Shown one piece after another: positions 36,274 through 54,633 of a stretch of DNA of 64,000 bases; position 1 is the first letter of the stretch, and the number at the start of each line of letters is the position of its first letter. The notes under the pieces were generated by a model. It saw only the letters and a list, made by a program, of their open reading frames with translations. It was not told where the DNA came from and did not search any database. The position numbers and the translations under genes were made by a program. The stretch is from a virus. The DNA lies in IMG/VR virus record IMGVR_UViG_3300008952_003220, positions 70,714 to 134,713 of that record; one strand, written 5' to 3'.

Positions 36274-36302
36274 GTGCAAGCTAAAAACCGGTATGGTATA
36301 AT
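36274..36302 (+). promoter_or_regulatory. GTGCAA-N17-TATAAT promoter
   Basis: Consensus match, AAGGAGG RBS follows. Confidence 0.72.
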
Positions 36303-36319
36303 GGAGACATCAAGGAGGT

Positions 36320-37034
36320 TTGATGCAACAGATTTATCTAGATAGGGACCAATGTAGCCAATTTCAAGTTGAGTATTTCGAGAAAGATTCAGTTTCCCTA
36401 AGAGCAGATGTCATTCTATCATCTAAGTTTAGTGGGTATGACGATGTTCATACTTCTTTTCTTCAAGAATTTCGAAGTCGAACGATACTACTGACACGTG
36501 CTAGAGATGACTCTCCGGGGTGGTACACAGTTATTAACACACTAGGGAGAGATCAATGATGTGGACAGTAATCTATCATAATGATGACCTCAGCATTTCG
36601 GCTGTAGAGTTTAATGGTCCGATGGACGCTCAGGCTGCTATGCTTGCAGTGTCTAAGACAATTAACGGCGCAGTTATAGCAATGGTAAAGGGGCTTCACA
36701 AGGTTTGGGAACCTGAACAGGGCTGGGTGAATGACAACACACCACCTTGTAGGACAGATGTACAGCAGCATGACCTCTACGAAATCTAGAGAGTCTAATA
36801 GTGAAGATGCATAAAGAAAAATATGAAGATCTTCTTCTTCGATTTGCAAAAGAGCTTCATGATGTTGGTGTGACAGAAGATATGAAGAAGATCGTAGAAG
36901 CGCAGTATACTAGAACACAAAATCTTGCCAGCTCCCACATTGAAGAAGTGACTGACAGATTTTGCTATCGTCATGATGGATATATGATTGAGGCTGTTCG
37001 AACAGTCAGTCTTACTGTGAAGAAGATGAAATAA
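36320..37034 (+). other. Three small hypothetical genes (36320-36559, 36556-36789, 36801-37034)
   Basis: Closely packed ORFs after the promoter. Confidence 0.55.
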
Positions 37035-37751
37035 ATGAAGTCATTGAAAGCTGGAGATCGAGTTGTAGTTAGGTCATCACTAGGCGACCAGACGGCAACT
37101 GTAATAAATATATTCTGGAGAGCTGTAGCAGGTACCTGTGTTTCGTATATCCACAGTATAGAAGTAATATACGAAAATGGGATGAAGGCAAGCGTCGTTC
37201 CTGAAAGAGTTGAAATATTGAAGTAGGCGGTTTAGTGTCTTTGATGTCCTAATTAATGAATGAGTGGCATCACTAGGACATGGAAAATAAAGAAATAAAG
37301 CTAGCTATCGTAGGAGACCTTGTTGTAAAGAGCAAGGGAATAAGTGTGGGTACAAGGGGAATAGTTACTAATGTGATCGTTAATTTCACAGGAACAACAA
37401 TCTATGAAGTTAATACGCCCATGGGATTACTTAGCTGGTATTCACGTCATGTCAGGATTATAAGATGAAATGCGGTGAGCTAGTAGCGTTTGTTGAAGAA
37501 TTGAATCCCAGAAAAAACTCATCTGATTGCGGAATCTTTAGGTGGAAAAGCGGAATCTTAGTGAAGAAAGATGAAGAGTTGAAAAAAGCCACTATTCTAT
37601 GTGAAGGATCGCTGGTTATAGTTCCACTAGAGTCGATATACATTAGGTCTTTTGATTCACTTTCTAAAGACACATTCACATTTTGAAATTATAAAATTAA
37701 GAAGATGTGTATTAAGATTAGCTAAATCTTAAATACTGGGAGACAGGATAA

Positions 37752-38024
37752 ATGGCTAATCTCTTTTTTGCTGGAGAAAAGGCAACAAAAGAAGAAGCGA
37801 AGAAGTCGCTGATGGAGCACATTGAAAAGAACTGGACTGGGACATTCTATGCTGACTTCCACACCGATGGCGGTGGCGTCTTAATTCGGGCGATCATTGA
37901 GGTAGAGCATCCAGGTGAAGAACTAGACCAAGAATTTAGAGGGAAATTTCCTGCTAAGTGGCTTGGCTGGCGCCTGGTTCTTCTCAAAGTGACACCCGGG
38001 TATATCGACGCTTTTATCAAATGA
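37752..38024 (+). CDS. Hypothetical protein
   Basis: 90-aa ORF, AGGA RBS. Confidence 0.6.
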   Translation: MANLFFAGEKATKEEAKKSLMEHIEKNWTGTFYADFHTDGGGVLIRAIIEVEHPGEELDQEFRGKFPAKWLGWRLVLLKVTPGYIDAFIK

Positions 38025-38407
38025 ATGTGGGTGACTTAGTAAGCTTTGATCTTCCCTATATTACAGGTATGGTCCCTGATAGAGGAGTAATCCTGTCTAT
38101 TAATAGGGATCTTAGCTACACTGATGAGGAGATCAAGGTCATGACTAACAGCGGCCTGATGGTCTACATCTCAGATCTAGACTTCAAATTCTACTGTGTT
38201 GAGGTGATCAGTGCGTGCGGGTGACATGGTTCGATTCAGGTATAGCGGAATGCTTGTTCACGACTTTCCTAATGATGTTCCATGGCATCTGGGTCTCTTG
38301 ATAGAGTACCACACATGGGAAAAGGTTGCGACTGTCATGCACAATGGAAAACTTCTCAGAATCAGAGCAGCTGATGTCACGAAAGCTGGAAAGAGAGATT
38401 TTGTAAA

Positions 38408-38668
38408 GTGAGTGATCAGGCTTGGTTTCTTTACGTTGTTGAGTGTGCTGATGCATCACTTTACACAGGGATCACAACAGATCTGAATAGAAGAATCGAT
38501 GAGCACAATAGGCTATCAAGGGGTGCTAAATATACAAGAAGCCGAAGACCTGTTAGGCTTATCTACTCAAAGAGGTTTAGTGATCGATCTGCTGCCTCAA
38601 GTGCTGAGGCGAAATTTAAGAGACTGGCTAGAAGAAAAAAGCTAGAGGTGATTAGTGAAGATAGGTGA
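38408..38668 (+). CDS. Small GIY-YIG nuclease (YhbQ-like)
   Basis: WFLYVVECADASLYTGITTDLNRRIDEHN..GAKYTRSRRPV. Confidence 0.88.
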   Translation: MSDQAWFLYVVECADASLYTGITTDLNRRIDEHNRLSRGAKYTRSRRPVRLIYSKRFSDRSAASSAEAKFKRLARRKKLEVISEDR

Positions 38669-38882
38669 TATCGTAAAAATGAAAGGTCCTGACGGAGAAG
38701 TTGGTCTTGTCGTTGAACTGGACAATCAGACAGGATTTACCAGAGTCGTTTGGCAAGACGGGGTAAGCCTGTGTGCTACGTCACACCTGATTCTAATTGA
38801 ATACATCACACACAAACCTAAGACAGAATCTTCTATATTTTCTTAATATGTAATTCTAAGACATATATGTGAAGATGATCCA

Positions 38883-39374
38883 ATGAATATCTTTGAAGAC
38901 ATCGAAGACCTTAAAGGCTTTCTAGATCTTGAAAGCGAGAAAATCCCTATCTATGTTACAAGTGGTGGCTTTGATCCGATGCATGTCGGGCACCTCAGGT
39001 GTATTCTCGAGACAGGAAAGATGGCTGATCAAGATGGTGGATTTGTTGTCATCATTCTAAACGGTGATGGATTTTTGCAGAGAAAGAAAGGCGCCGTCTT
39101 TATGCCAGAGAGAGAAAGAGCAGAGATCATATCTGGCATCCGGGGTGTCGATGCCGTCCTAATTTGGGATGACGGGTCACAGACAGTTGTTGGTGCGCTC
39201 GAGCAGATCGAACCTGACTATTTTACCAAGGGAGGAGACCGCGCAGCCCCTGAGGACATTCCAGAGTGGGGGATCTGCCAGGAGGTCGGCTGCAAGGTCA
39301 TATTCAATGTCGGTGGCGGTAAGGTCCAAAGTTCATCTTGGCTTATAAGCGCTGCTAAAAAAGACTCAAGCTAG
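38883..39374 (+). CDS. Cytidylyl/adenylyltransferase-like protein
   Basis: SGGFDPMHVGH, ERAEII, FTKGGDR, KVQSSS. Confidence 0.85.
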   Translation: MNIFEDIEDLKGFLDLESEKIPIYVTSGGFDPMHVGHLRCILETGKMADQDGGFVVIILNGDGFLQRKKGAVFMPERERAEIISGIRGVDAVLIWDDGSQTVVGALEQIEPDYFTKGGDRAAPEDIPEWGICQEVGCKVIFNVGGGKVQSSSWLISAAKKDSS

Positions 39375-39400
39375 TGCATATTTATAGGTGAGGGCTAAGC

Positions 39401-40021
39401 ATGAAGATCACTAGTGAGCAGCTAAGAAGAGTTATAAAAGAAGAGCTCAAGATTCTCAGTGAAGATGAGGGCACAACTTTTGACAGAGCTGGAATTACAT
39501 TTCCCATTGATCGGCCCGGGACAGTAGAGTCAGAGAGATATGCCGACATATCGCGGATCTCAGACTGGATTCACGTAGCTCTGCGCACAGCTGATAGAAT
39601 GGAAACTACTGTTCAAGACATTAAAGAGGTATTACTACCACTATATCAATCCAGGGAGGAGTATGAGGAGTTGCGGTTGCAAATATTTGACAGCGTCGGC
39701 GCTCAGCGTGCTGTTGTAGCTCAGCAGCTTAGCCCAAGAATATCCCAGGTCAAAATAGGGCTAGAGGCCGCAACTGTAGCCCTTGAAAGCATGCAAAGTG
39801 AAGTCGCAGTCTTAGAAGAGATTATTCTTCAAGCAGCCCCCGCGGAGATACAGTCGCTCGAGGAAAGAGTTGCAGGGATTCTTGACCCACTCAGAGGGGA
39901 TGTAATCGAGACAGAAGAGGAATCATTGGTTCCAGTAGAGCAGGTTGAACCAGGAGATGCTAGGCGGGCTGAGCGTCAGCGACGTCGTCAACGACGTCGT
40001 CAACGGAGACGAGAGCAGTGA
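39401..40021 (+). CDS. Leader-family coiled-coil protein
   Basis: MKITSEQLRRVIKEELKILSE; ATATTTAT upstream. Confidence 0.72.
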   Translation: MKITSEQLRRVIKEELKILSEDEGTTFDRAGITFPIDRPGTVESERYADISRISDWIHVALRTADRMETTVQDIKEVLLPLYQSREEYEELRLQIFDSVGAQRAVVAQQLSPRISQVKIGLEAATVALESMQSEVAVLEEIILQAAPAEIQSLEERVAGILDPLRGDVIETEEESLVPVEQVEPGDARRAERQRRRQRRRQRRREQ

Positions 40022-40386
40022 AGACAACCAGGAGACAGCTAAGACGTCTTATCAGTGAGGAGATTCGTCTCTACTTAAGCGAGGCTTTTTCTCAAGATAA
40101 AGAAGATGAAGCAAGAGAAAAGATTGTTCAAGCTGTTGAGCTAGCCCTGGGGGGATTTAAGAGAAGGACCTTTCTAAATCCCAAGGAAGTGATGGCTTTA
40201 GAGAACGGCCTAATGTCTGTTGGATTAAATCCAGATGATTTCAACATAGACCCAGGTCACCAATTACCTCGTGGGCGAGCTAACAGACAAGGCCAGCCGT
40301 GCACAGTTGCTATATATCTAGATAGACACGCATATCACTTTGAGTTTGATAGAAAGCTTGGAATAAGGGAAGTTGACAGAACATGA
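40018..40386 (+). CDS. Leader-family protein
   Basis: MKTTRRQLRRLISEEIRLYLSE. Confidence 0.7.
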   Translation: MKTTRRQLRRLISEEIRLYLSEAFSQDKEDEAREKIVQAVELALGGFKRRTFLNPKEVMALENGLMSVGLNPDDFNIDPGHQLPRGRANRQGQPCTVAIYLDRHAYHFEFDRKLGIREVDRT

Positions 40387-41444
40387 AAATAACAAGAAAA
40401 CAGCCAAGAAGACTGATAAAAGAATCCACCTACGAAGAGATCGCAAGAATTCGTGACAGCGGAGACTACGAATGGATGGATATGGAATACGAAGTAGTAG
40501 ACTTAATGGAGTCTATGCAGACATTCCCAGCGAAAGATGTTATTGATATAATGTATTCCGCACTTGATGCTGAAAATAGAAGTGACGTGGGCTTCTGGCA
40601 CATGATGTTGAGTGATGGAGGTCATCTTTACGAAGCATTAGATGCATTGAAGGATGAAGAACGGAGACTGGCAGGAGATGGAGAGCTGAGTGATGCTGAA
40701 GCAGTTCAGCTCCATGCCCTTGCTGATGAAGCAATTGAAGATGCTCTGACAGAACAGACGACAAAGATCACACGCAGACAATTAAGAAGTCTAATCAAAG
40801 AAGAGATGGGCCGACTTATCAACGAGCAGGATTATGACGAATCAAACCTCTATACACACGCTGATGGGCAAGAGCTTGTTAACAGGCTTAGAGTCGTTAA
40901 TCCCAGACTGGCAAGAAAATATGAAGAGAGTCTCGATACACTTTTCGACAACGGAGACAAGACTGGTCTTTCTATGCGTGTTCGGCAAATGCTCTATGAT
41001 CTCGAGGCAGATACAATCATAGATGATGTAGATGAATTTCAACCAGGGTTTTCTGAGTACGGATCTGGACATGGGGCTGAGCTCGGCGGTGGGATGACTT
41101 CACAAGACTACTATTCTACTTTAAGGCAGCAGTGGAAAGAAGAAACAGGAGACGGAGAGCTTTCACCCGACGAGGCAGCGCGCCTTCGGGCCCTGACAGC
41201 CGACGCAATCGCTGATGCAGAGTCAGATAAACCAGCCCCTCTAGTGATGCCAGACCCAGCTACCGGAATATCTCTCGGTCTTGATCAACAGGCATTCGGA
41301 TCCTCAGGAGATCCTGAAATGGAAGCTGAGGTGGGACTTGCTCTTGCTCTGGACACTGGCGAGCCAGGAGAGATCGAGGCAGCTGTCAAGAAACTAGAGG
41401 ATCTAGGCTATTCCCCGCAAGAGATCTCCGACATGGGCGGATAG
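40383..41444 (+). CDS. Protein with two leaders and two GDGELS modules
   Basis: N-terminal leader and internal KITRRQLRSLIKEEM; GDGELSDAEA, GDGELSPDEA. Confidence 0.75.
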   Translation: MKITRKQPRRLIKESTYEEIARIRDSGDYEWMDMEYEVVDLMESMQTFPAKDVIDIMYSALDAENRSDVGFWHMMLSDGGHLYEALDALKDEERRLAGDGELSDAEAVQLHALADEAIEDALTEQTTKITRRQLRSLIKEEMGRLINEQDYDESNLYTHADGQELVNRLRVVNPRLARKYEESLDTLFDNGDKTGLSMRVRQMLYDLEADTIIDDVDEFQPGFSEYGSGHGAELGGGMTSQDYYSTLRQQWKEETGDGELSPDEAARLRALTADAIADAESDKPAPLVMPDPATGISLGLDQQAFGSSGDPEMEAEVGLALALDTGEPGEIEAAVKKLEDLGYSPQEISDMGG

Positions 41445-41459
41445 TAAACAGTCTATTAC

Positions 41460-41488
41460 GTGTAAACTAGACACTCCTGTGGTACAAT
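41460..41488 (+). promoter_or_regulatory. GTGTAA-N17-TACAAT promoter
   Basis: Consensus match, AAGGAGG RBS follows. Confidence 0.72.
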
Positions 41489-41612
41489 AAATGTATTAAG
41501 GAGGAATGATGCTAGCGTTTGTTATGGACGTCCTAACTGTTGCAGTTGGCGTCCATGTTTATTTTATGGCTAAAGACTGGCGTGATCGCCGACGATATCG
41601 ATAGGAGAAGAG

Positions 41613-42234
41613 ATGCTTACAGATAAGCAGATTCAAGAACAGCTTACAACACTTCGTTTAAATTTCGACCCTGAGTCCCCGTTCAAGGGAATGATTGATC
41701 TCTATAGTGATGGAGGTCTAATGACATTGGGTACTGATGAGCAGTGGCAGGTTCACGATGCAATGAGTGACGATCTGAAAGGGATGGTCTTTGGAGAGAG
41801 TGATGAGATTTCCTCTCACTGAAACTCAAGCCGTCATCCTCGTTAAGCTCATCAACAAAGAGAAGATTCTCAGGCGTGATATGATGATCCTAGACATGGT
41901 CATCCTCACTCAAGTTGGCGCCATTAGAATGCGCAAAGAAGGGCTCACGATCACGAAGGCCGGCAAGCTCCGGTTCGTCAAGTGGGCTCGCAAACAAGGA
42001 ATGGTGAAATAAATGGTTGATCTATCTAAGACATCTCCTGGTGATCTCGTATGGTTCAAGGTCTGGTGGCAGGCCCGACCTCTCTACGGTGAGGTTCTAA
42101 AGCTCATTCCAGACGAGGAAGCAATTGAGGTTCTAACCCCGCTTGACGGATACCGCACTGTCTGGATCAAGAACGCATTCTTCGAGGAGAAGAAGGCCAG
42201 GAAATCAGAGTATCAAAAGTACGGTAGCGTGTAA
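41613..42234 (+). other. Three small hypothetical genes (41613, 41791, 42013); the last is KOW-like
   Basis: Adjacent ORFs; SPGDLVWF. Confidence 0.5.
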
Positions 42235-42257
42235 TAAGCGCTAAGCTGTGGTATAAT
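42229..42257 (+). promoter_or_regulatory. GTGTAA-N17-TATAAT promoter
   Basis: The -35 hexamer includes the upstream stop codon. Confidence 0.72.
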
Positions 42258-42277
42258 ATAAGTGTCAAGGAGGAAAT

Positions 42278-42598
42278 ATGACTTTTACCCGTAAGCAATA
42301 CCTGGCAGGCGAATGCACTCACGACCAGTACTACGATCAGCTTGTCACGGAGGAATTGAAGAATACAGTTCTTCGTTCCATTCCTGAGAAGCAGATCATG
42401 TGGAGCAGGGATGAGAGCTTCAATGACATTCCTCTTCGATCCTGGGACTGGCTGGCAAAGTTTAACCCAGTTGAACCAAAGAAGTTCAAAGAACTAGGAG
42501 ATTTCAGCACACTGGCTGGTCAGGTCTGTGCACTGAAGGCTGCAGCTCGTCAGATTCGTGAGGAGTCTGAGGGTCGCCCAGTCGCAACCTATCTGTAG
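42278..42598 (+). CDS. Hypothetical phage protein
   Basis: TRKQYLAGECTHDQYYDQLV...FNDIPLRSWD. Confidence 0.65.
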   Translation: MTFTRKQYLAGECTHDQYYDQLVTEELKNTVLRSIPEKQIMWSRDESFNDIPLRSWDWLAKFNPVEPKKFKELGDFSTLAGQVCALKAAARQIREESEGRPVATYL

Positions 42599-42607
42599 AG
42601 ACAATCA

Positions 42608-42856
42608 ATGTTTGAAGACAACCCATATTCCCTGTATGACAAGCCTGGACAGAAAGAGGCTACAGCGGATATCAATGCGTTTATGGACAGTGTTCAGAGA
42701 GAAGTAGCTGCACATCAGGAGAACCTCAGCGCGCTTTGGAAAGAGCTTCGGGAGCTGGCTGATAAGTATAGCTCTCTGGGTGCGGCTGACACAGAGTCAC
42801 GCTACGCCATTGAGTTTGAGTTTCGAAAGCGGACAGAAATCAATGAAAGTCGGTGA
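42608..42856 (+). CDS. Hypothetical protein
   Basis: LGAADTESR; ends in junction repeat (NESR). Confidence 0.6.
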   Translation: MFEDNPYSLYDKPGQKEATADINAFMDSVQREVAAHQENLSALWKELRELADKYSSLGAADTESRYAIEFEFRKRTEINESR

Positions 42857-43593
42857 TGTAGTTAAGGAACGCTGTAGCGGCCAAGTCGGGCTTGTTATTG
42901 AGAGACACAGTCGAGCGGAACTGGAGGGTAGCCCTAACAGTGACTTCACAGTTAGCTATCAATATAAAGTGCTGTTTGGCACAGAGACAGTGTTCGTTCG
43001 AAATACTAGGTCAGTTGAGGTGATAAGTGAAGCTCGGTGACGTTATATACGATTCTCACTACGGACAGAACGGTATGGTCGTTGAGGTGTCTGAGTGCGG
43101 TGTATTCTGCACTGTTCTCTACTCTGACGGTATTTCTGAAAGGGGCATTCGGGCTAATGAGCCTGGAATTGAGGTGATTAGTGACTGACAAAGAGATTAT
43201 TCGTGAGGCATTCTTCGCACTGTCGGGCTTTCGAAGCCCGTCACTAACAAAGAAGCAGCAAGAGCAGGAACTGGAAAGATGTTGGAAGGTGCTAGCAGAA
43301 GCTGTATACGGGAGTGGAGAAGAAAATGAAACTCGGTGACTGCATAGTTATTTTTTCTTTTGTGTTTGTTGGGATTCCGCTCATTGGACTGCTGACAGCT
43401 TTTGTCGAGATTCTTATGGGTGTACTGTGAAAGTCGGTGACTTGGTAAGATGGAAGGGTCACAGCAAGATACCTGGTATTGTCTTGGCAACAAAGCAGAC
43501 GAAGGGGGCATTTAGACGAACTGCTGTGCTTGCGTATATTCCCGAATGCCCAGAACCAGAATGGTTTTTGAAAAGCGAGCTGGAGTTGGTAAA

Positions 43594-43926
43594 ATGAAAG
43601 CCTATGACGGTTTTGCAATTCTTATTCTGTCTGGTTGCTTAGTTCAAGAGAAAGATACGGGACATGAGAACGATTTCCCAATTGAGTCTGTGAGCTGCAC
43701 TCACCCTGATTCGGATTACGAAGCTGTTGTTGAAGTCGCTGTCGAAGATAGCTATGAATGGGAAGATATCCATTTCCAGATTCATCAATACGAAGAGACA
43801 TGGGACACACTTCTGTGGAAGCCTGGTGATGAAGACACAGCTTGGTATACAAGAATGCAGATTATGGAGCTCGACTGTCGGGCTGGATATGATTATGACT
43901 TTCTATATGTAGAGGGTGATTTGTGA
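43594..43926 (+). CDS. Putative acidic lipoprotein inside the array
   Basis: FAILILSGC lipobox-like. Confidence 0.5.
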   Translation: MKAYDGFAILILSGCLVQEKDTGHENDFPIESVSCTHPDSDYEAVVEVAVEDSYEWEDIHFQIHQYEETWDTLLWKPGDEDTAWYTRMQIMELDCRAGYDYDFLYVEGDL

Positions 43927-45811
43927 AACCTGGTGAACGCATGAATCCAGGTGACCTAGTTAGGGTAATCCATGAGGATGATCAACAGTTCACTTGTGAG
44001 ACGGCGTCGTACGTCTGGCATGAGTTCATGGGGAAGTTCGGAATGATCGTCTCAATGGCAAAGCGGCTTCATATCCCAGCTGCCAAGGTTCTTATCAAGG
44101 GAGCTGTGGCTGAGTTTGATCTTGATGAGCTGGAGACATTATGACTATTTGTGAAACCTATGCAAGTCGGTGACTTGGTGAGATGCACCTGGCAGCCTCG
44201 GTCATCCGGGCATGTCAAGGGAATTGGGTGCCTTGGGCCACCACCACTCATCAAGGGAGAGTACGGAATTATTGTTAACCAGCGGCTTGATATTAACCAT
44301 CATACAATATTGTTTCCAAGGTTTGGATATGAGCATACACTTTCTCCAAACGCGTTTGAGGTGATCAGTGAAAGCCGGTGATTTGGTAAGATTTAAGAAT
44401 ATTGGTGGACCAGCTAAGGCATGGGGGTCATATGGGCTCATCACAAGAATCCACCATCATCGTCATGTAATAGGGCGGATCTACCTTCTCACAAGATTTG
44501 GGCTGGCTACAGTTCCATTTTCTAAGAGAAGTAGATATCTTGAGGTCGTAAAGTGAAAAGCTTTAGAAGTGAGGAAATGTGAGCTGTCTTAGTTCTCTTT
44601 TTTGGATGGATCCAGTGATCATCTTAGTGTCATCTATTTCTGTTTTTTTCGCTCTAAGTTGGTTTTTGGAAAAGATTGCTGATAAGCTTGGAATAAAGGA
44701 TGAAGAAGATTGAAGGTTGGTGACTTGGTTCGATATAGGGCTGGTAAGGGCTTCGGTCCGATTGCGATTGTTGTCGATGAAAGTCCATCAATCTCTGACT
44801 TTCATCGACGAATCAGAGTGATGTGGCTCGGAAACAAGAAACCCGTTGCTTCTCATGCATTTTCAGTCAATGGAAAGAGGGTTAGTACTTGGGTTCATCC
44901 AAAAAAGTTTGAGGTGATCAGTGAAAGTCGGTGACTTGGTGAGGCACAAACGTTCAGAATGTGGAATGACAGGAATCATTGTGGAAGTTCATGTTAACAA
45001 AACTCCCATCGTCCTGTGGGGCGATGGTCGACGTGGTCAATGCATCCCAGCATATCTTGAGGTGATCAGTGAAGCTTGGTGACTTGGTGACTATGCCTGG
45101 TACGTGGATTAGAAACATGGACGATGGCAACGGATTGGGAATGGTGGTAGAATTGCCTTTTGTCGGTCCTAACGGAGAAACGCAACAAACTCCGCGAGTC
45201 GGCATATTGTGGTCGGATGGAGAAGGAATTGACTGGGAGCCTGAAACATGGCTGGAGGTAATCAGTGAAAGTCGGTGATCTAATTAGACACACGAAGACA
45301 GGTTGGACAGCGATGATTCTTAAATTGCCTCGATCTACTTCGGATGCGGGAATGATGACGGTACTCACTTTCGAAGGTGAGGGTCAGTGGAGAATGTCTT
45401 CATGCGAGGTGATCAGTGAAAGTCATTAGACCGGGATCTCACGCGAGAGTCGGAGACTACATTCGAGAAGGTTGGGATACTGAGACAAGAAGTATTCAGC
45501 CTCCATACAACTATGGCATTGTCATTAAGACAGAGACGCGCACTTTGGGACCTTACACGCAAGAGCAGATCGATGAATCGCCAATTAGGAAGATTTATTT
45601 TCTAACTAATGGTGGAAAGATAATGGCGAGGTATGCGGTGCACATAGAGGTAATCAGTGAAAGTCGGTGATCTGGTACGGGTAATGAGTCGAGAGGGTAA
45701 TATCGGACTAATCGTAAAGATTGAAGAGTATTATCTTATGGCTCAAAAAGCTAAGCATGCACTTCTTCACACTGGAGAGAGTTTTCGTCTTCACGAGCTG
45801 GAGGTGGTTTA

Positions 45812-46198
45812 ATGAAAGCTGGTGACCTAGTCTTCTGGGGTTTATTCGGTATGATGATAGAGGTATGCTTTACTGCGCTAAGAAGCTTGATTATAGATAA
45901 GAAGCTTAATTTAGTTGGACACACTTCTGTGTGGATGTTTCCCATATATGCCTTAGGACTTTCTTATGGTTTCGATTTTGTGTTGTGGTTAATTAAAAAT
46001 GACGTGATTCGGTATCTCACGTACCCCTTGTGGATTTGGGGAGTCGAGCTTGCAGTAGGGATTCCAGCTTCAAGAATGGGAATTTTACTGTGGAACTATG
46101 ATTATCTTCCTAAGCAGCTGCATTGGAAAGGAATAATCAGCTTTGCTCACTACCCGCTGTGGGCAGGTTTTGGTATATTGGTGGAGATGATTAAATGA
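45812..46198 (+). CDS. Multi-TM membrane protein carrying the MKAGDLV start
   Basis: EVCFT...GHTSVWMFPIY...WGVELAVG...WNY...GII. Confidence 0.65.
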   Translation: MKAGDLVFWGLFGMMIEVCFTALRSLIIDKKLNLVGHTSVWMFPIYALGLSYGFDFVLWLIKNDVIRYLTYPLWIWGVELAVGIPASRMGILLWNYDYLPKQLHWKGIISFAHYPLWAGFGILVEMIK

Positions 46199-46760
46199 AA
46201 GTAGGTGATGTTGTTCGCATACCAGCAGGAGCTAGGGATGCCTTTAGAATGAGATCTGATGTCGGAATGATTGTTGGAAAGATTCCCAGAAAGGATAAGT
46301 ACCCAGACGATCTCGAGGTTTTGGTCGATGGTATTATCCATGCCCTAGGGTTTCAGATAAAGGTTGATCCGCTTTTTAAGGTGATTAGTGAAGCTGGGTG
46401 ATCTGGTCCAGATACAAAGCTGGTGTCGAAGCAAGGGTAGAATGGCACATGTTGTGGAAACATTCTGGTGGGATACTTCTCGAGTAAGGATTCAATTTCT
46501 TGATAAAGCAGGACTATCTCAAAAGCCCTCTGATGCAGCAGTATCTAATTTAATAGTGCTTCAGGCAGTAGAGTGAAAGCCGGAGATCTAGTTTATGATG
46601 ACAGCATTGGACTTATTGGTATTATCATCGGTGTTTCGACTGTGGGATATCGAGGATCGGAAATGTACGATGTCTTATTTCAACCTGTCTTCTCAGGTGA
46701 GATATTCATTGCTGAAGTGTTCTCTAAAGATCTGACGATTATCGGTGAGACATAAGTTTC

Positions 46761-46789
46761 GTGCAGCCTTGAATTAGCTGTGGTATAAT
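46761..46789 (+). promoter_or_regulatory. GTGCAG-N17-TATAAT promoter
   Basis: Consensus match, AAGGAG RBS follows. Confidence 0.72.
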
Positions 46790-46817
46790 AAGAACATACA
46801 AAACAAGGAGAAAAACA

Positions 46818-47123
46818 ATGCCACTTTCAGCAAATGAACTAATGCTAGATGCTAAGATGCTCAATCTCGAAGAGATGCTTGAGCTCAACAGCTTCCTCGT
46901 CAGTCAAATCAAGAAAGAACAGAAACGTCAAGCACGTCAGAACAAAGCTAGCCTCTCTGTCGGAGACGCAGTTAGGTTCTCAGACAATGACGGTCTCGTC
47001 ACCCACGGCAAGGTTACGAAGATCATGCGTACAAAGGCCCTGGTTGACGTTGGCCCTTGTGTCTGGCGTGTCCCAATGCATCACCTGACCAAGGTTAAGA
47101 TGCCTACCGGGTTTGCTGTATAA
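46818..47123 (+). CDS. Helical N-terminus plus SH3-like domain protein
   Basis: LSVGDAVRF...GKVTKI...WRVP. Confidence 0.65.
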   Translation: MPLSANELMLDAKMLNLEEMLELNSFLVSQIKKEQKRQARQNKASLSVGDAVRFSDNDGLVTHGKVTKIMRTKALVDVGPCVWRVPMHHLTKVKMPTGFAV

Positions 47124-47446
47124 TGGCGACGCTTCTAGAAAGACTTCGAAACCACGACTGGTTCTACGCATACTCTGACGATCACCGTGTGTGGAAGCGC
47201 GGTGAGCAGCGTACCAAGGAGCTCTACAGCGAGCTCGTCAAGAGGGAGTGTCCATACAATATGGGTGACATTCGTATGACAGTTCAAAAGATGATTCTTG
47301 AAGACTTCACAGAGGTTGAGACTAATCGATGGTATCGAGACCCTGAGAAGACTCGATATGTGGCACCTGCACAGAGATCTGAGCTTATTGAGAGATCACG
47401 TGCTGAAGAGGTTCTGAGGTGGATTGATTCAAATGAAAATCGGTGA
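47123..47446 (+). CDS. Hypothetical phage protein
   Basis: LRNHDWFYAYSDDHRVWKRG. Confidence 0.65.
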   Translation: MATLLERLRNHDWFYAYSDDHRVWKRGEQRTKELYSELVKRECPYNMGDIRMTVQKMILEDFTEVETNRWYRDPEKTRYVAPAQRSELIERSRAEEVLRWIDSNENR

Positions 47447-49116
47447 TCTTGTAAGATATAAGTACCCCGATGTCATGGACCCGTGTGTTGGTCTTCTTAT
47501 TAAGATTGACAAGAAGGCTAAGCGAGGATATCATCAGTACGGAGTGATGTGGGACTTTCTTCATGGCAGGATCGGTTGGCAAAAAAAGAGTGAGATCGAG
47601 GTGATAGATGAAAGTCGGTGACCTGGTGATGATTGAAGCCAGGAACAAGAAGCAAACGCTAAGGCCTCCATACTATGGAAAGACTGGAATCATTGTCGGT
47701 CATAATCCTGGTCCGCTTGGCAGCCCTGAGTGGGTTGTTGTTGTCGATAGGAAGGTTAGACAGATTAGTTATCTCTATCTGAAGGTTGTAAATGAAAGTC
47801 GGTGATTTGATAAAGTGCCCAAACAGGCGTCCAGTTCGACAGGGACTCATTATCGAGACTGGTGTGTATGTTGGCAGAAAAGATATTAAGGTTTTGTGGA
47901 GCAATGGTTCGATTTGGACTGAGCGGAGCAAAGATATGGAGACTATCAATGAAAGTCGGTGATCTTGTCAGGGTCTTTGAAAAAAGAGCTTGTGGCGGGG
48001 TTTCAAATGGAGCCATCGGCTTGGTCTTAGAAGAAGACAATAGCCAAATAACAACTCCACGATGGAAGATCATGTGGCTATCAGGAAACGAGATGACGGG
48101 TAGGCTTAAGACTAGTCGAATGAAAGAAAGTGTAACTTATGGACATGGACTAGAGGTGATCAGTGAAAGCCGGTGATCTTGTGAAGCTCAAAGTGGGTGA
48201 AGAGCCTCGAAATAAAAGAGAAATAGGCACAGTCATACAGATTGATGCGTACATTACATCTGTAGGAATGGAACCGATGGCAGAGGTCCTGTGGAATACG
48301 GGAGAGACTGGGTGGATATTATCTAATAGAGTTGAGGTGCTAAGTGAAAGCAGGTGATTTGGTAAGGCTCAGGAAGTCTCATCCAGCTGTACAGCGCTGG
48401 CGGAAAAGCTATCGGAGGCTCGGGCACCCCTTCATTGGGAAGTGGGCAGACGCGGCTGTTCCCCTGCTTGTTCTCGAAGAGTGTGACCACTCTATTGACC
48501 GGTGGAGGGTAATCGGTCCAGGCGGCGCGCTTGCATCTTTTGACGGATTTTTGCTCATTCGATACGGAGCGCGAAATGAAAGTCGGTGATGTGGTCCAGT
48601 TTCTACAAGAAAGGTTTAAAAGATCTCATATTGATCAGTGCGGAATATGGGATTGTAAAATCGGAATTCTAGTTAAATACGAAGGCTCTGATTCAATGAC
48701 ATCAGTCTTTTGCGATGGTAAGCTTTTTCAGATTCATGAAAGTAGAATTGAATATCTGGACCAGGAGTTTCAGTTAGATGAAGGCTGGTGATCTTGTTTA
48801 CGCAATTTACGACCTTGAGCGAGGGCTCAGTACAGTTGGTATAGTCCTGGAAGTGGAAAAAGATAATGTAAAAGTGCTGTGGTCATCGCCATCGAATCCA
48901 ATGGGATGGTGGCGAAAGAATCAGCTGGAGATTATGCATGAAGGTAGGTAATCGAGTCCTAAAAGATCAAGTCCTAAATCATAAAGACGCTGAAGGAATA
49001 GTTACTAAGATCACGAAGGAACATACAATTATTCAGTGGGATAATATAAACGGCGAATGGCACTACAGAAGTGATCAGCTAAAAGATATAAAGGTCTTAG
49101 ATGGAGGACACAAAAA

Positions 49117-49959
49117 ATGAAAGTAGTCTTGTTTGATGCGATGAATCTGATACACAGATCAAGAAACTCATTTAGTAAAGGTGAGCATCCTCTGACATAT
49201 AGCTTCTTTAGATGTTTTAAGCCGCTAGTAGAAAAGTTTAACGCTGATCTAGCATATTTTGTTCTAGAGGGAAATCCATTACACAGGTCTGGGGAATATT
49301 CAGAATACAAGTCAAATCGTCCAGCACAGCCAAGTTCATTTTGGAGACAGTGTGGGGAGATCCTTGAGACAATGAAGAGCTTACCGATAGTTCAGATTAG
49401 GCATCCAGACTATGAGTGTGATGATGTCATAGCCAATCTCGCTAAATATCATTGCGACTCTGGAAATGAAGTCATTATTGTTTCTTTCGATTCAGACTTT
49501 ATTCAGGTGTTTGACAATATGAATCCAGATCTAGTGAAAATATATCACCCAATCAAGAAGGTCTTTATTGAGAATCCAGACTACATCTATCTCGACTGGA
49601 AGGCACTGAGGGGTGATGTGAGTGACAATATTCCAGGTATAAAGGGCGTAGGAGATAAGACAGCGACAAAGATTATCAATGACCAAGCACTTATGGAAAA
49701 GACTCTAGCTGATCCACAGAAGAAAATGATATTTGATAGAAACAGGTCGCTGATCCAGTTTCACTGGTTTGACGATCTGTCAAATGATCTTCAAGATTCG
49801 GGATCAGAGGTCGTCTATCCTAATATATCTTTTGATGAAGTAAGGTCTAGCTTTGCTGGAATGAACTTTGATAGCATGTTGTCAGATAGGTATTGGACCA
49901 AGTTTGTGGCTGCCTTTGAGTCTCTTGTAGCAGGTACTGTTAATGATAAATGTCGGTGA
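49117..49959 (+). CDS. 5'-3' exonuclease / flap endonuclease (T4 RNase H, PolI N-terminal family)
   Basis: FDAMNL, YKSNR, YECDDVI, SFDSDFIQ, ALRGDVSDNIPGIKGVGDKTA. Confidence 0.92.
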   Translation: MKVVLFDAMNLIHRSRNSFSKGEHPLTYSFFRCFKPLVEKFNADLAYFVLEGNPLHRSGEYSEYKSNRPAQPSSFWRQCGEILETMKSLPIVQIRHPDYECDDVIANLAKYHCDSGNEVIIVSFDSDFIQVFDNMNPDLVKIYHPIKKVFIENPDYIYLDWKALRGDVSDNIPGIKGVGDKTATKIINDQALMEKTLADPQKKMIFDRNRSLIQFHWFDDLSNDLQDSGSEVVYPNISFDEVRSSFAGMNFDSMLSDRYWTKFVAAFESLVAGTVNDKCR

Positions 49960-50151
49960 TCTAGTCATTGTTAAGAATGATCTGTCTGTCTGGTATGACA
50001 AGGCTGTTGGTGTGATTGTTGAGATCATTGGAGACCGAGATCAAAGAACTGCAGTAGCCCGGGTTCTTCTTGAAGACGGAGCTTTGGGTGTAGCCTATCT
50101 AAGAAATTGTGAAAAGATAGAAGACGCTGATAAAATCTAGAACACAGTTTT

Positions 50152-52063
50152 GTGTAGCTTTGGCAGTGCAGTGGTATAATGGTAATGTCACCAACTAAGG
50201 AAGACAATATGCTTACTTACCGACTCATTCACGCACTCCTCGACGACGAGGATGGCATTTCAGGGGAGGCGTACGATGCGCTTCTCAATTGGTTGTGTTG
50301 CCACAAGGACGGCAGCCCAGAGCTTGCTGAGCGGATCACCGATGCTGCCAAGGCAGCAAACGGTCGCTGGTACATCCCTGAAGGGGCTGATCTCAGGCTC
50401 TCTGACCCCGGTCGGATGGGGGTGAAGTGATGCGAGAAAAGATTCCCACAACGTATCTCAACGCGCTAGCGCTTAAGACACGAACTGCTAACGGTCTCAA
50501 CTATGTCTTCGAGGCCTATGATCTCCAGGTCGTCGCACTTCAAGATATTCCGGGTAAGCCGCATCTTGAGCGTATCATCGTTGGTGACTGGAGCGGAGAT
50601 CGACGAGGCACCCTCGTCTATGACCATCGGGCTGGATGCCCGGTTACGTGTAGCTAAGCCTAAGCCATGGTATAATAGAGACATAAGGAGGGACAATGAG
50701 AAGTGCAGTTGCTGATTATCTATTGAACCTGAAGCCGTACGAGCTTGTCGACATCGCGGTTGACTACCTTGGGTGGGACAGTGACGATGTGACTGTGGAG
50801 GTCGCATGGCAGTGGGTGGCTGGCCTTTCTGATGTAGAGGTCGCAATTATTTATAATGAAATGGAAGGTGCATAATGCCAGACGTAGAGAAATATCTAAA
50901 CACACCCAACCTTGGCCGAGATGACGAAAACAAGCACAGCTGGAAGCTGGGTGATATTGTCCATACTGCCGGGTCTTATGTCACGGCCAACGGTTACAAC
51001 TACTGTGGCTATGAACAGTTCGACATCCCAGTCGGATCTCGTGCACGGATCATCGGCATCAAGCAGACTGATCTAAACGCGGCACACAACAATGGCATCG
51101 GCGATGTCTACATCGACTTTGAGCTTCTGGATCACTCTAATCCTGATGGGACACCTGTCACCTGTGGCAACCGTCACTCCTTCTCGATGGCTGAGGCTTG
51201 TCGTGAGTTCTCACTCTGCCCTGACGGCAGTGGAGACCCCGGATACGTTCGAGGCTCCGGCCAGCGGAATGAAGGCCTTTGGGTGAGCATAGAAGCTAAG
51301 CGCATCGAAGATCATCCGGAGCGCGGATACGCTCGGTTCCAGCATCGAAAAGTGGTTGACCCTTCTCAATACGTGTAACAGCGTTTCTGATGTGGTATAA
51401 TGGTAACACCTACTAAGGAGGCAACATGGTTTACGGAACTTCTTACTTCCCGACACGAGGAGACGCTTACAAGTACTACAGGGCACAAGGTGTCTTCTCC
51501 TTTCAGGTTGATAATAAGATCACGGACGGAGAGATCAATATTGGAAAGCCTCCTGGATATCTGGGGCACAATGCCCGAGCCATCCTGCAGAATGATCAGG
51601 GCGGGTCGAAGCGGTGGTTCATCGCAGAAGATATCCGTGCTGGATAGTGAAAATAAGGGAGACATATAATATGAGAAAACCACGGAAGGATACGATTCGA
51701 AATCTCTACCGAGATGGGATCATCCAGTACTTTGGATGCGGAGACAAGGACCTCGACCGCGATCTAATCAAGTCTACAAAGAAGGACGTCCACATCGCCG
51801 GGAAGGCTCCAGGGCAGTGGGTCAGTGATGAGGGGATCCTCGAGATCTACTGTGAGAGTGGAATCCCTAATGCATCTGACATCCACGAGATACCTCCGAT
51901 GCCAGAACTTGGGATTATGAAAGGAAGCTGTCATTACAATAGTGATAGCTGGTGTAAGCTTGATAAGTGGGTCAATCTCGGACTCAAGGCACGTGGATAT
52001 AGTGAGCGTGTCCATCACGAGCCCTACAACGGTGGTGTGATTGGAGTCTTCTGGGACTATTAA
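50152..52063 (+). other. Promoter-delimited cassettes of small hypothetical genes (50209, 50427, 50696, 50875, 51426, 51671)
   Basis: Promoters at 50152, 50648 and 51373, each followed by an AAGGA(G) RBS. Confidence 0.6.
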
Positions 52064-52120
52064 AGAATAGAAAACTGAACCCCGTGCTAGATAGTTATTC
52101 TCATAGGAGTGCTACCTAGT

Positions 52121-53584
52121 ATGCGGTTCACTAGTGTTCAACTTAGAAAGGTCATTAGACGTATTCTCACTGAGTCAATAGATGACGAAGACGGAGAGCT
52201 CGACACAAAAGAAGCAGAACAGCTTAGATATTTAACGAGAAAGGTAATTGATGATGCCACAGATTCTCCGCGCGGACACAAGCAAAAAGATAAGCGTGTT
52301 CTCTATCACATCAATCGTTTACGACCAGCTAGACCCCAACCGAAGATGACTTACTGGCAAGAGTGGGATCCTGATAAGATCGACCGCGAAGGAGATAAGG
52401 GCGATTACGTGAACGTTCCGGGATCTGATGGCTGGAAAAGACACTGGCTAGACAGCCCTGTCAAATCTGGTGTTTTTCTCACACCAAACCCTCTAGACAT
52501 TGCAATGAAGCATGGACGATCAGGTCACGTTTATGCGTACAGAGTTCCGCAGTGGGTTATAGCAAAATCTGGTGGGCTGCATCGTTATGACACTGGGTCG
52601 GAGGTTCTTATTCCTGAAGATGTGTGGAACGAAGCAGGGGAAGAGATCGAGTTCATGGGTAAGAGCATGGACAAGGAAGAGTTGTGGGACAAGATGGACA
52701 GTGCTCAGTTCGGCAGGGGCCACCACAGGAAAGCAAAGAAGCCGGCTTGGATGACTGACGAAGAATTGAAGCAGTGGCAAGTCAGTCAAGACAAATTTAA
52801 TCTTGGAGGATTAAGAGCAACCAGCTACCCTGAAAGCGCGATTCAGCTTATGAAACCCGAAGATAGAGAGAGAGCTGTCGCAGCCATTATGGCAAAGAAA
52901 GAATTCGAGGAGCCGCAGCGAATAGAAAAGGGGCCTAGAGATAAAAAGGGAATTGTGATTCCTTCCTTCGGCTGGGGCCTGGACAAGAAAGATGAGGAGC
53001 TTTTAGCTTTGCTGAAGAAGCGTATGAATGAAGAAGCCTTGCGAGTGTGCATAAGAGAGATGGTGGAAGATGGTTACGGAGAGTTCAACTCTACAGATGC
53101 GCAAGAGCTAGCAGCGCTTGTTGACAAAGCAATATCTGATGCTCAAGACATGATTCAAAGTGCAGGTGTGATAATAGTAGATAGAGATCAAGACACATCA
53201 GATCCCTATATCCTATGCCTCAGAGCATACAACAACTGGGGCTTTCCAAAGGGTAGAGCTGAGCCCGGCGAGGACAAAGAGCAGACAGCTTCTAGAGAGA
53301 CGCTAGAAGAAACTGGGCTAGAGGCTGACATAGACTGGTCCCTTACAGGTGAGCAAGCACCCTCAGTAACCTATGGCAGCGGAAAAAAGAAAAAGACAGC
53401 TTCCTATTTCATGGCAGATAGACTCAGTGAGAAACAGCCTTCTTTGCCTGTCAATCCAGAGCTTGGGCACGCTGAGCATGACGAGTGGCGGTGGGTCCCA
53501 GCATCACAGTTATATGATATCATGCCTAAAAGACTGGGGCCCGTGATTAAATACATTCAACAATCTCTCGGGTCCCAGCTGTGA
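52121..53584 (+). CDS. Leader-family fusion: ADP-ribosyltransferase-like domain plus Nudix hydrolase
   Basis: Nudix box GRAEPGEDKEQTASRETLEETGL (strong); LYH...GVFLT...HVYAY...EVLIP (weaker). Confidence 0.7.
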   Translation: MRFTSVQLRKVIRRILTESIDDEDGELDTKEAEQLRYLTRKVIDDATDSPRGHKQKDKRVLYHINRLRPARPQPKMTYWQEWDPDKIDREGDKGDYVNVPGSDGWKRHWLDSPVKSGVFLTPNPLDIAMKHGRSGHVYAYRVPQWVIAKSGGLHRYDTGSEVLIPEDVWNEAGEEIEFMGKSMDKEELWDKMDSAQFGRGHHRKAKKPAWMTDEELKQWQVSQDKFNLGGLRATSYPESAIQLMKPEDRERAVAAIMAKKEFEEPQRIEKGPRDKKGIVIPSFGWGLDKKDEELLALLKKRMNEEALRVCIREMVEDGYGEFNSTDAQELAALVDKAISDAQDMIQSAGVIIVDRDQDTSDPYILCLRAYNNWGFPKGRAEPGEDKEQTASRETLEETGLEADIDWSLTGEQAPSVTYGSGKKKKTASYFMADRLSEKQPSLPVNPELGHAEHDEWRWVPASQLYDIMPKRLGPVIKYIQQSLGSQL

Positions 53585-54633
53585 TTATCACAGAGATGAT
53601 GTTGCGAAGTCTTGTTAGAGAGTCTCTGATTCTTGAGGGCCCAAGAGATCAGGTAATATTCAAGGCCATCTTCATGGCAGGCTGTCCTGGTGCCGGTAAG
53701 GGGACAGTGATTGAGGCTATCTTTGGAAGAGGCACCGGAACAACACATCAAGGTCTAAGGATCGTGAATCCAGATCAGCTTTATGAATATCTACTTTCAG
53801 CGGCGGACATGCCTCTTTCCGCTCCGGACCTTCCCAAGGATGATCCTTCACTTTCTGCATATAGATCAGCAGCAGGAAAGTTGCAACATCGTGCAGGAAT
53901 GAAGATGACCGGAGGTTCTAAGGGCGTAGCTCCTGGTCATGTCGGGCTAGATGTTACTTCTTATGGGTACAAACCCGGGAAGACTTCTCGAGGACCATCA
54001 CAGATTGAGACATATATTCAAGGTAGAAAAGGCTTAATCATCGACGGAACTGCTCGCAATTACGAAAAGATAGAAAGAGAAAAACAGATACTTGAAGAGC
54101 TGGGATATGACGTAATGATGGTAGCAGTTGTAACTCCAGAGCCTGTTGCTCAGGAGAGAAATGCCAAAAGAGCGCTTGATCCTAAGAAGCGATCTATTTA
54201 TCCAGGTGCTGTTAGGGGAGCCTGCAACGCACTTAACTTGAATTTAGGAAAAGAATGGGAGAGAGATCCAGCCCAGCCCGATGGTCTAAAAAGAGACAGC
54301 CAGGGAAACTTTATCGTAGTGCAGGGTACCAACAGATACAGGGATCTGTTTGGTGATAACTACATAGAGATTGATAATACTAAGCCCGAAGAGGAGGCAG
54401 TTACCGATGATGATGTGAGCGTGATAGAGGGCTTCATCTCATCTCCCCTATCAGCAACTGCGCAGCAGTGGGTCTCTAACGCCCTAGGCTCGTCTCCCGT
54501 TTCAGGGGAAGAACCAGAAGAGCTTACATCTGATGATGCAGATCAGCTCTCAGCCCTGGTCGACAAGGCAGTTGGTGATGCACTAGGTGATGAAGAAGAT
54601 GATGACACTTTAGGTGACGAGGAATATGTATAG
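53581..54633 (+). CDS. Leader-family zeta-toxin-like P-loop kinase
   Basis: KAIFMAGCPGAGKGT, VNPD, GLIIDGT, LGYDVMMVAV...ERNAKR. Confidence 0.75.
   Translation: MIITEMMLRSLVRESLILEGPRDQVIFKAIFMAGCPGAGKGTVIEAIFGRGTGTTHQGLRIVNPDQLYEYLLSAADMPLSAPDLPKDDPSLSAYRSAAGKLQHRAGMKMTGGSKGVAPGHVGLDVTSYGYKPGKTSRGPSQIETYIQGRKGLIIDGTARNYEKIEREKQILEELGYDVMMVAVVTPEPVAQERNAKRALDPKKRSIYPGAVRGACNALNLNLGKEWERDPAQPDGLKRDSQGNFIVVQGTNRYRDLFGDNYIEIDNTKPEEEAVTDDDVSVIEGFISSPLSATAQQWVSNALGSSPVSGEEPEELTSDDADQLSALVDKAVGDALGDEEDDDTLGDEEYV

Follow-up and report, generated by a model that had tools for sequence, protein, structure and literature searches.

Within a 64,000-nucleotide stretch of a virus record from IMG/VR (IMGVR_UViG_3300008952_003220, positions 70,714 to 134,713; hereafter the window, numbered from its own first letter), positions 42013-50140 carry an array of 36 co-oriented genes on the plus strand, most of which encode small proteins of a single family and are chained to one another by a recurrent junction sequence. 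The gene chain was curated manually, and family membership was assigned by our own call. Of the 36 genes, 25 clearly and 2 probably belong to the family; of the other nine, 5 encode unrelated soluble proteins, 3 encode small membrane proteins and one encodes a 5′-3′ exonuclease. Family members are 51-101 amino acids (aa) long and follow the pattern MK[VAL]GDLV ... LEVI. A prediction made earlier from the sequence alone (the original prediction) had proposed about 25 genes, mostly of 50-85 aa, with almost unalignable interiors, and curation upheld both points: identity to the first aligned sequence is 20-42%, mean column identity is 20%, and G4 is the sole invariant column, with D5 present in at least 90% of rows. 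No recent duplicates were seen in the window in this alignment. The features of the array are listed below; family genes were recognized by alignment unless another basis is given.

42013-50140, plus strand: whole array, 36 co-oriented genes, 27 of the family by our call (curated chain)
42013-42234, plus strand: probable family member, 73 aa, SPGDLV motif after a 9-aa extension; aligns with the family, our call, without a hidden Markov model (HMM) match
42608-42856, plus strand: unrelated 82-aa gene, ends ...INESR* in a 14-nucleotide (nt) overlap; no Pfam match
42843-43040, plus strand: family gene, 65 aa, ends EVISEAR*; metagenome orthologues 60-84% identical
43027-43188, plus strand: family gene, 53 aa; open reading frame (ORF) start pattern and alignment
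43181-43339, plus strand: unrelated 52-aa gene, ends ...ENETR* in a 14-nt overlap; 63% identical homologue in locus L001; no Pfam match
43326-43430, plus strand: membrane mini-protein, 34 aa, with the family N-terminus MKLGD; ORF start pattern
43427-43597, plus strand: family gene, 56 aa, 4-nt overlap upstream
43923-44144, plus strand: family gene, 73 aa, with an N-terminal extension (MKPGERMNPGDLV)
44151-44381, plus strand: family gene, 76 aa, ends EVISESR*
44368-44556, plus strand: family gene, 62 aa, end of a run, terminates LEVVK*
44710-44934, plus strand: family gene, 74 aa, TTG start
44911-44934, plus strand: exact 24-nt junction copy by motif scan; copies with 1-3 mismatches start at 43017, 44358, 45059, 45255, 45647, 47598 and 48153
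44921-45082, plus strand: family gene, 53 aa
45069-45278, plus strand: family gene, 69 aa
45265-45429, plus strand: family gene, 54 aa, ends EVISESH*, TAG stop at the -14 position (chain)
45416-45670, plus strand: family gene, 84 aa, junction codons GTG AAA GTC first, GD motif 10 residues later
45657-45812, plus strand: family gene, 51 aa, ends LEVV*
45812-46198, plus strand: 128-aa membrane protein of a conserved unrelated family, N-terminus MKAGDLV (homologue listing)
46195-46401, plus strand: family gene, 68 aa
46388-46576, plus strand: family gene, 62 aa
46573-46755, plus strand: family gene, 60 aa; Gly4 is GGA, not GGT, and that stop is unused by any upstream gene (chain)
46818-47123, plus strand: probable family member by our call, 101 aa, helical N-terminal part then SVGDAVRF...; 53% identical homologue beside the L001 exonuclease
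47123-47446, plus strand: unrelated 107-aa gene, ends ...SNENR* in a 14-nt overlap; no Pfam match
47433-47621, plus strand: family gene, 62 aa
47608-47805, plus strand: family gene, 65 aa
47792-47962, plus strand: family gene, 56 aa
47949-48176, plus strand: family gene, 75 aa
48163-48357, plus strand: family gene, 64 aa
48344-48589, plus strand: family gene, 81 aa
48576-48791, plus strand: family gene, 71 aa
48778-48951, plus strand: family gene, 57 aa, the member modelled by AlphaFold2 and used in fold searches
48938-49120, plus strand: family gene, 60 aa (MKVGNRV)
49117-49959, plus strand: 5′-3′ exonuclease (FEN/RNase H type), used as synteny anchor; Pfam PF02739 (4e-21) and PF01367 (1e-12)
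49943-50140, plus strand: family gene, 65 aa (MINVGDLV), 17-nt overlap on the exonuclease

Apart from the exonuclease, the array genes outside the family had no match in Pfam. Across the 35 junctions, neighbouring genes overlap by 14 nt at 19, by 4 nt at 7, by 1 nt at 2, and by 8 nt and 17 nt at one each, with gaps of 6-62 nt at the remaining 5. The 24-mer GAGGTGATCAGTGAAAGTCGGTGA, previously described as near-identical at six sites, is indeed present at all of them (44358, 44911, 45059, 45255, 45647 and 48153, with 1, 0, 3, 1, 1 and 1 mismatches, respectively) and at two more (43017 and 47598). These eight copies at no more than three mismatches lie exclusively on the plus strand of the window; none is expected by chance, and 100 shuffles gave 0 matches. 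The start of the family genes is equally one-sided, with 25 window ORFs starting MK[VALI]G[DN] on the plus strand and 0 on the minus strand. A looser start pattern applied to the whole 134.7-kb record finds 33 plus-strand versus 3 minus-strand ORFs, and all 33 fall within the part covered by the window. Matches of the family HMM to the record (22 at E<=0.01) are likewise confined to window positions 35195-48954.

The junction can be read in two frames. In the upstream frame it is GAG GTG ATC AGT GAA AGT CGG TGA (EVISESR*), and in the downstream frame, one base on, GTG AAA GTC GGT GAY (MKVGD). Because TGA occurs in both alternative frames of the first five codons, RTG AAA GTC GGT GAY (as RTGA and as GGTGA), upstream genes read in either of the shifted frames terminate 4 or 14 nt into the gene that follows. 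An upstream gene in frame with the next would be fused to it, as expected where a cassette period is a multiple of three. The codons for the last strand of the protein, L-E-V-I (YTN GAG GTN ATC), contain the Shine-Dalgarno core GAGGT, 5-6 nt ahead of the next start, and the consensus GAGGTGATC is complementary to the conserved 3′ end of 16S rRNA.

Codon counts were made on 662 distinct family genes, drawn from the window and from IMG/VR loci fetched via the junction, with junctions matching the search pattern excluded; the junctions that remain are called non-ascertained below. The overlap is -14 in 461 of the 662 genes, -4 in 101 and of another kind in 100. At 381 non-ascertained -14 junctions, the commonest base at each position of the GAGGT core (-10 to -6) occurs in 69-90% of cases, with little conservation at wobble positions -5 and -2 (38% and 51%). 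The curated chain and these counts confirm that the junction unites an upstream stop, a Shine-Dalgarno sequence, a start codon and the next N-terminus, as had been proposed. Two adjoining genes depart from the common form. The gene at 45265-45429 ends in EVISESH, with TAG where other genes have TGA, at the same -14 position, and the gene at 45416-45670 keeps the junction's GTG AAA GTC alone, followed by a 10-residue extension ahead of its own RVGDYI motif; it may be a recombinant with its break inside the junction.

The EVISESR C-terminus is no independent feature of the proteins, as its last four residues are imposed by the codons of the next gene. In the common -14 phase the [S/N]-E-S-R tail is a by-product of those codons, because unrelated genes that precede family genes carry it too (INESR, ENETR and SNENR, ending at 42856, 43339 and 47446), and family genes at the end of a run terminate in LEVVK, LELVK or LEVV, without the tail. 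Whether the tail is SESR or NESR is set by a GTG or an ATG start in the next gene. In keeping with this, 137 of the top 150 metagenomic representatives of the family are short proteins, and 76 of these end in one of the two (45 SESR and 31 NESR).

A Shine-Dalgarno element upstream of the stop, together with CGG being the least used Arg codon of the interiors (0.09), might also suggest programmed +1 frameshifting or read-through that would generate chains of fused barrels, and metagenomes do contain in-frame fusions of two to five family-like barrels (P0087, P0095, P0136 and P0091, as well as P0133 and P0138). However, no slippery motif was seen, the downstream gene has its own start codon at 35/35 junctions, and among the 137 short representatives 130 have this start, reading M[KQRNET]xG[DN]; we consider frameshifting extremely unlikely. 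The layout is rather that of translationally coupled pairs, since 30/35 junctions overlap by 1-17 nt with the Shine-Dalgarno sequence inside the upstream ORF, which suggests that the array genes are coupled in translation. As in known coupled genes, the upstream stop lies in or near the downstream start, and the familiar RTGA arrangement (-4) occurs at 7/35 junctions. The passages of PMC12548453 on overlap spacing give -4, -1 and -8 as the enriched values. Compared with these, the predominance of -14 (19/35 junctions in the window, 461/662 in the clade set) is unusual, as is a sequence stereotyped over dozens of consecutive genes.

The 14-nt overlap contains a single doubly synonymous site, at which GTC or GTA (Val3) corresponds to CGG or AGG (Arg) in the upstream frame. 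Val3 codons in non-ascertained -14 genes are GTC 248, GTA 42, GTG 14 and GTT 1. From interior codon usage (GTC 0.22 × CGG 0.09 versus GTA 0.18 × AGG 0.17), C would be expected at this site in 39% of genes; with each of the 447 clusters at 50% identity represented by a single gene, the ratio of C to A is 174:33 (p 4e-40). The bias is also present where upstream genes make no use of the GGTGA stop: Gly4 is GGT in 113/172 genes whose stop serves no upstream gene, compared with 29% in interiors, and GTC:GTA is 73:24. From codon 5 onward the bias weakens. The synonymous-site comparison recommended in the original prediction was therefore positive, and the junction is more conserved than two-frame coding requires. 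This excess fits either selection on RNA or translation, or homogenization by recombination, and does not tell the two apart. RNA structure at 19 junctions is no more stable than in shuffled sequences (mean z +0.27), and in the array neither promoter-like sites (31 versus 25.9 +/- 5.5 in shuffles) nor terminator-like sites (14 versus 9.5 +/- 3.3) are in excess. The absence of junction structure and of a promoter or terminator excess fits a single long message.

These counts bear on a first alternative, namely that the array consists of ordinary tandem paralogues, whose junctions are alike through separate constraints on the protein termini, the Shine-Dalgarno sequence and the stop, whose differences arose by ordinary duplication, deletion and divergence, and whose junction plays no part in recombination beyond that of any similar DNA. 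By our reading of the sequence, all positions of the 14-nt overlap but one are non-synonymous in some frame; the upstream half of the junction has normal wobble variation, the G-D and the hydrophobic pair are fold-core elements, and AAA as second codon favours initiation. These points speak for ordinary paralogues. Against them stand the C excess at the doubly synonymous site, a GGT and GTC bias that remains where upstream genes do not use the stop, and the lack of recent duplicates in the window. Further evidence on this alternative comes from the exchange of cassettes.

Exchange was examined by comparing related IMG/VR loci with each other. Loci L041 and L044, at 99.3% identity, are told apart by a single cassette, which fits exactly between two copies of the junction. 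In L060 and L069, with flanks 98.0% and 99.6% identical, one 55-aa cassette interior is swapped for an unalignable paralogue of the same length, and identity returns at the next junction. Between L014 and L026 two genes are replaced, and a membrane-protein gene comes in with the replacement. L020 and L041, like L011 and L051, have individual cassettes in common (78-97% nucleotide identity), arranged in different orders. Among related contigs, therefore, genes are added, deleted, swapped and reordered at the junction, as the original prediction had proposed for the window phage. Linkage between neighbours was measured for gene pairs from different contigs, with genes of at least 100 aa from the same loci as controls. 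The fractions of pairs that share the downstream neighbour, by amino acid identity of the pair, are as follows.

Pairs at least 95% identical: cassettes 43/52, control genes 8/8
Pairs 85-95% identical: cassettes 4/41, control genes 2/2
Pairs 70-85% identical: cassettes 1/57, control genes 7/12
Pairs 50-70% identical: cassettes 0/178, control genes 44/79

Neighbour linkage decays much more steeply for cassettes than for ordinary genes. Where the neighbours differ, similarity stops at the junction on 30/34 right sides and 22/23 left sides. Ordinary paralogy does not readily account for these results, because point mutation cannot swap unalignable cassettes within flanks that are 98-99.6% identical, and because cassettes at 85-95% identity have already lost the neighbour linkage that control genes retain.

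Genes from outside the family add to this picture. Homologues of the 128-aa membrane protein at 45812 form a well-conserved family (212 matches at E<=0.001), yet of the 120 that were listed a single one, 99% identical to the window's protein, shares the MKAGDLV start; the others listed start MQINQLLFWG, MEINHLLFWG and similar. The MKAGDLV start could have arisen by a few substitutions from forms such as MIVGDLLFWG, and graft and convergence are indistinguishable here. A DUF2061 membrane gene in L014 has both MKVGD and ...ESR, and the 34-aa membrane gene at 43326 in the window starts MKLGD. Junction halves on foreign genes are what would be left by insertion through junction recombination, and their presence on unrelated membrane genes is a further difficulty for ordinary tandem paralogy, which we regard as unlikely overall.

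Discrete cassettes with one repeated boundary, varied orders and foreign genes between the repeats also recall integrons, in which promoterless co-oriented cassettes are added, lost and reordered at a repeated boundary, and a site-specific system could be envisaged in which a dedicated recombinase moves cassettes as circles. No PF00589 tyrosine recombinase was matched in the 134.7-kb record, which is 45% complete, whereas the control matched in 14/14 genomes. Moreover, neither an inverted repeat nor a stable fold is seen at the junction (the mean z of +0.27 over 19 junctions given above), nor an attC-like hairpin, and unlike attC the junction codes in two frames; the exchanges look like general homologous recombination. 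An integron-like system is very unlikely.

The fold of the family was examined through a single member, the 57-aa protein encoded at 48778-48948, modelled with AlphaFold2 on 120 family sequences. The model has a predicted local distance difference test score (pLDDT) of 91.4, a predicted template modelling (TM) score of 0.75, and five strands at residues 6-9, 20-27, 30-35, 42-46 and 50-52. Foldseek places it with Spt5/NusG KOW, NdhO, NdhS/Ssl0352 and SPbeta YorP (TM 0.7-0.77, E 0.01-0.2), and an independent structure aligner gives Z 6.2-7.9 over 48-56 residues, tied among KOW, Tudor, PWWP, NdhS, PsaE and CAP-Gly. The modelled member is thus predicted to be a small barrel of the SH3 type whose first strand resembles that of KOW, and the earlier suggestion of a small SH3/KOW beta-barrel is borne out by the pLDDT, the TM scores and Z values up to 7.9. 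Its resemblance to the KOW/SH3-like barrels of NusG/Spt5, NdhS/Ssl0352, NdhO, YorP and Tudor extends to the five strands, the length of about 55 residues and a VGDxV motif followed by G..G.V; it differs in that array members are stand-alone proteins rather than domains of larger factors, with Z at most 7.9. Sequence comparison does not place it in the KOW family. The family profile matches Spt5 KOW repeats in the PDB at E 0.002, from summed weak repeats only; KOW models in Pfam stay below threshold (best KOWx_SPT5, E 0.0078, 16.3 bits against a cut-off of 20); and Pfam KOW/SH3 matches at E<=0.1 occur in 4/120 members, none reaching the family cut-off. A PHROGs search with 10 members returned 0 families. 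The cyanobacterial look-alikes NdhO, NdhS/Ssl0352, PetP and PsaE were considered as a clue to host or function and dropped, as they tie with many SH3-like barrels.

The divergence of the interiors had been attributed to rapid diversification, for which we find no support. Over 65 equal-length orthologue pairs from different contigs, the median interior ratio of nonsynonymous to synonymous substitution rates (dN/dS) is 0.14, with one pair above 1, so that each cassette is a real gene under purifying selection. The variety of the family is, by these sequence comparisons, old paralogy that has been reassorted and does not come from fast diversification by point mutation. The same figures bear on targeted hypermutation of the interiors by a diversity-generating retroelement (DGR), a process that would spare the ends and so account for conserved termini around very divergent interiors. 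A dN/dS of 0.14 between orthologues is hard to reconcile with such a process; in addition, replaced interiors are unalignable and carry indels rather than adenine-only changes, paralogue lengths vary (51-101 aa), and no PF00078 reverse transcriptase was matched in the 45%-complete record. A DGR has practically no probability as an explanation.

The family is very large. Its profile matches 6,224 representative clusters (50% identity) at E<=0.001 out of 1.84 billion metagenome representatives. ESM Atlas matches are to virus clusters labelled 'hypothetical protein' only, and a word-index protein search returned unnamed metagenome proteins apart from one labelled entry, a 3-methyladenine DNA glycosylase (Mpg), a label that we take to be spurious. 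Full-text literature searches, supplementary files excluded, found no published description of the family or the junction.

We propose that the array is a tandem set of co-transcribed genes for SH3/KOW-like mini-proteins, in which a coupled junction doubles as recombination homology, and we give this a probability of roughly 0.7. The DNA for both conserved edge strands of the barrel also serves the neighbouring genes. A ribosome finishing one gene would be held at the next start (termination-reinitiation), and the whole chain could be translated from one message. In relatives, and presumably in the window phage, the shared 25-35 nt supplies homology for general recombination, permitting in-frame insertion, deletion, replacement and reordering of cassettes, and unrelated genes entering the array would acquire junction halves. 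This stretch is common to all cassettes and recurs throughout a clade of large marine phages whose capsids are of the T4 type.

Several points weigh against this proposal. The break points are unresolvable inside the junction, because all cassettes share it and similarity would end there under any mechanism. In the linkage comparison, neighbour homology was called at 50% for cassettes and at 30% for control genes. Exchange is shown in the clade and inferred for the window phage, whose best relative is 68% identical in the exonuclease. The preference for C over A could come from translation, for example from avoiding AGGTGA right after the start, and not from recombination. The loci were found via the junction itself and are a selected phage set of related, non-independent sequences. 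A -14 overlap is not obviously efficient, given that in one study described in PMC12548453 coupling fell as the overlap grew from -4 to -25 nt. Finally, no result bears on function: a PADLOC defence-system screen matched 0/28 genes, no Pfam or PHROG family applies, and no RNA run was listed.

As to what the proteins do, the array resembles a reassortable collection of small, distinct modules for binding, and these are probably host-interaction proteins of a non-essential kind, although our confidence in this is low. The suggestion follows from conservation limited to fold-core positions combined with purifying selection on each orthologue. More specific roles as binders, or as anti-defence or takeover factors, are a low-confidence guess from the modelled fold and the lack of conserved surface residues. 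A broader idea, possible but held tentatively, is that the junction is a selected, integrase-free cassette system embedded in coding sequence and conserved, beyond the needs of either frame, as a clade-wide recombination currency, with the arrays forming a traded library of thousands of host-directed SH3-like binders. On this idea, any cassette dropped into any array, foreign membrane genes included, would at once receive a stop, a ribosome-binding site and an in-phase start.

If the proposal is correct, one short two-frame sequence would handle termination, ribosome binding and initiation as well as exchange homology, and phages would have a way to maintain a large reserve of small accessory genes for exchange while dispensing with promoters, terminators and a dedicated recombinase. 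The arrays would also offer a natural test bed for termination-reinitiation at the unusual -14 spacing. The protein family itself is very large, abundant in marine viromes, and unnamed in any catalogue.

The closest known system is modular shuffling mediated by promoter-early stem-loop (PeSL) elements in the hyperplastic regions of T4-type phages, where, as described by Arbiol et al. 2010 (PMC2839356) and Comeau et al. 2014 (PMC4122927), short repeats flank small, mostly unknown, non-essential genes. Recombination between PeSL repeats is described in PMC2839356 as yielding insertions, deletions and replacements that separate close phages, and the repeat-bounded differences between close relatives described above (L041/L044, L060/L069 and L014/L026; relatives, not the window phage) are of the same kind. 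A PeSL, as described there, is an intergenic sigma-70 promoter with a terminator stem-loop, whereas the array repeat is coding sequence in two frames with a Shine-Dalgarno element, a start and a stop. Relatives of the window phage also have T4-type capsid genes. The array differs further in having no promoter or terminator excess and no stable junction fold, and in that the genes between its repeats belong mostly to one protein family. A second parallel is the internal-protein locus of T-even phages, in which a conserved N-terminal capsid-targeting sequence stands ahead of variable genes. There too, a conserved N-terminal coding stretch precedes differing gene bodies that are exchanged among related phages; in the array, however, the N-terminus is strand 1 of the predicted fold, not a cleaved targeting peptide.

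The degenerate 24-mer was found in 75 stretches on 72 IMG/VR contigs (our count) of 6-236 kb, and the loci hold 1-27 family genes each, nearly all on one strand. Four of five large contigs tested share the DnaE-like polymerase of the window phage (39-59% identity), and the same four encode a Gp23-type capsid protein. The relatives of 185-236 kb combine a DnaE-like polymerase with a T4 Gp23-type capsid. The window's record is 134.7 kb long with a CheckV completeness of 45%; Gp23 was unmatched in this incomplete record, in a search whose control also matched nowhere. Among the GenBank phages of INPHARED there was no DNA match to the array, no tblastn match at E<=0.01 for a 64-aa member, no match for an 860-aa neighbour gene, and only chance matches for a 51-nt junction piece; the nearest DnaE-like polymerases are about 30% identical. 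By these negatives, the clade is without a cultured representative in that collection.

A pattern search with the gene at 42843 gave 57 matches in viral contigs, none of them confirmed. The exonuclease search found a single relative (present twice), L001, the nearest relative, at 68% identity. In L001 (11753-13069 and 19116-19476) the array has the same junction and is shorter, and it lies downstream of the exonuclease, not upstream.

The junction was also found in six contigs of metagenome-assembled genomes (MAGs), labelled Halobacteriovorax (two), Flavobacteriales, Legionellales, Verrucomicrobiae and uncultured bacterium, with family genes in 5/6 loci. The Verrucomicrobiae match, at 54% G+C and without family genes, is apparently due to chance. 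The phage-like array contigs in the Halobacteriovorax, Flavobacteriales and Legionellales MAGs (L082-L085 and L087) are probably mis-binned, and no host is drawn from them.

A search of sequencing runs listed 9 DNA runs with matching sequence and no RNA run. Short-read contigs of four marine runs, queried with 41500-51500, end at junctions, and none of those listed spans the array. Since short-read assemblies break at junctions, such arrays are probably under-assembled in viromes. The listed short-read joints have sides of 20-30 nt that are the junction repeat itself, and are uninformative on cassette polymorphism in the window phage; contigs that share joints probably come from other organisms. 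In run X5, depth in junction bins reaches 145.

Two further genes, one of the family and one family-like, lie outside the array in the window.

38655-38846, plus strand: outlying family member, 63 aa, with GAGGTGATTA ahead of it (alignment, HMM)
37044-37226, plus strand: outlying family-like gene, 60-63 aa (MKAGDRV) (alignment)

Small ORFs with an internal (P/A/V)GDLV-type motif, distant from the array and without the junction, occur at 7017-7232, 13710-14009, 14399-14596, 16711-17007, 37035-37226 and 37280-37468, and may be remote SH3-like relatives. Elsewhere in the window, an AAA_5 ATPase adjoins a DUF2201 metallopeptidase/VWA protein (17927-20348), and a Nudix fusion adjoins a zeta-toxin-like P-loop kinase (52109-54633).

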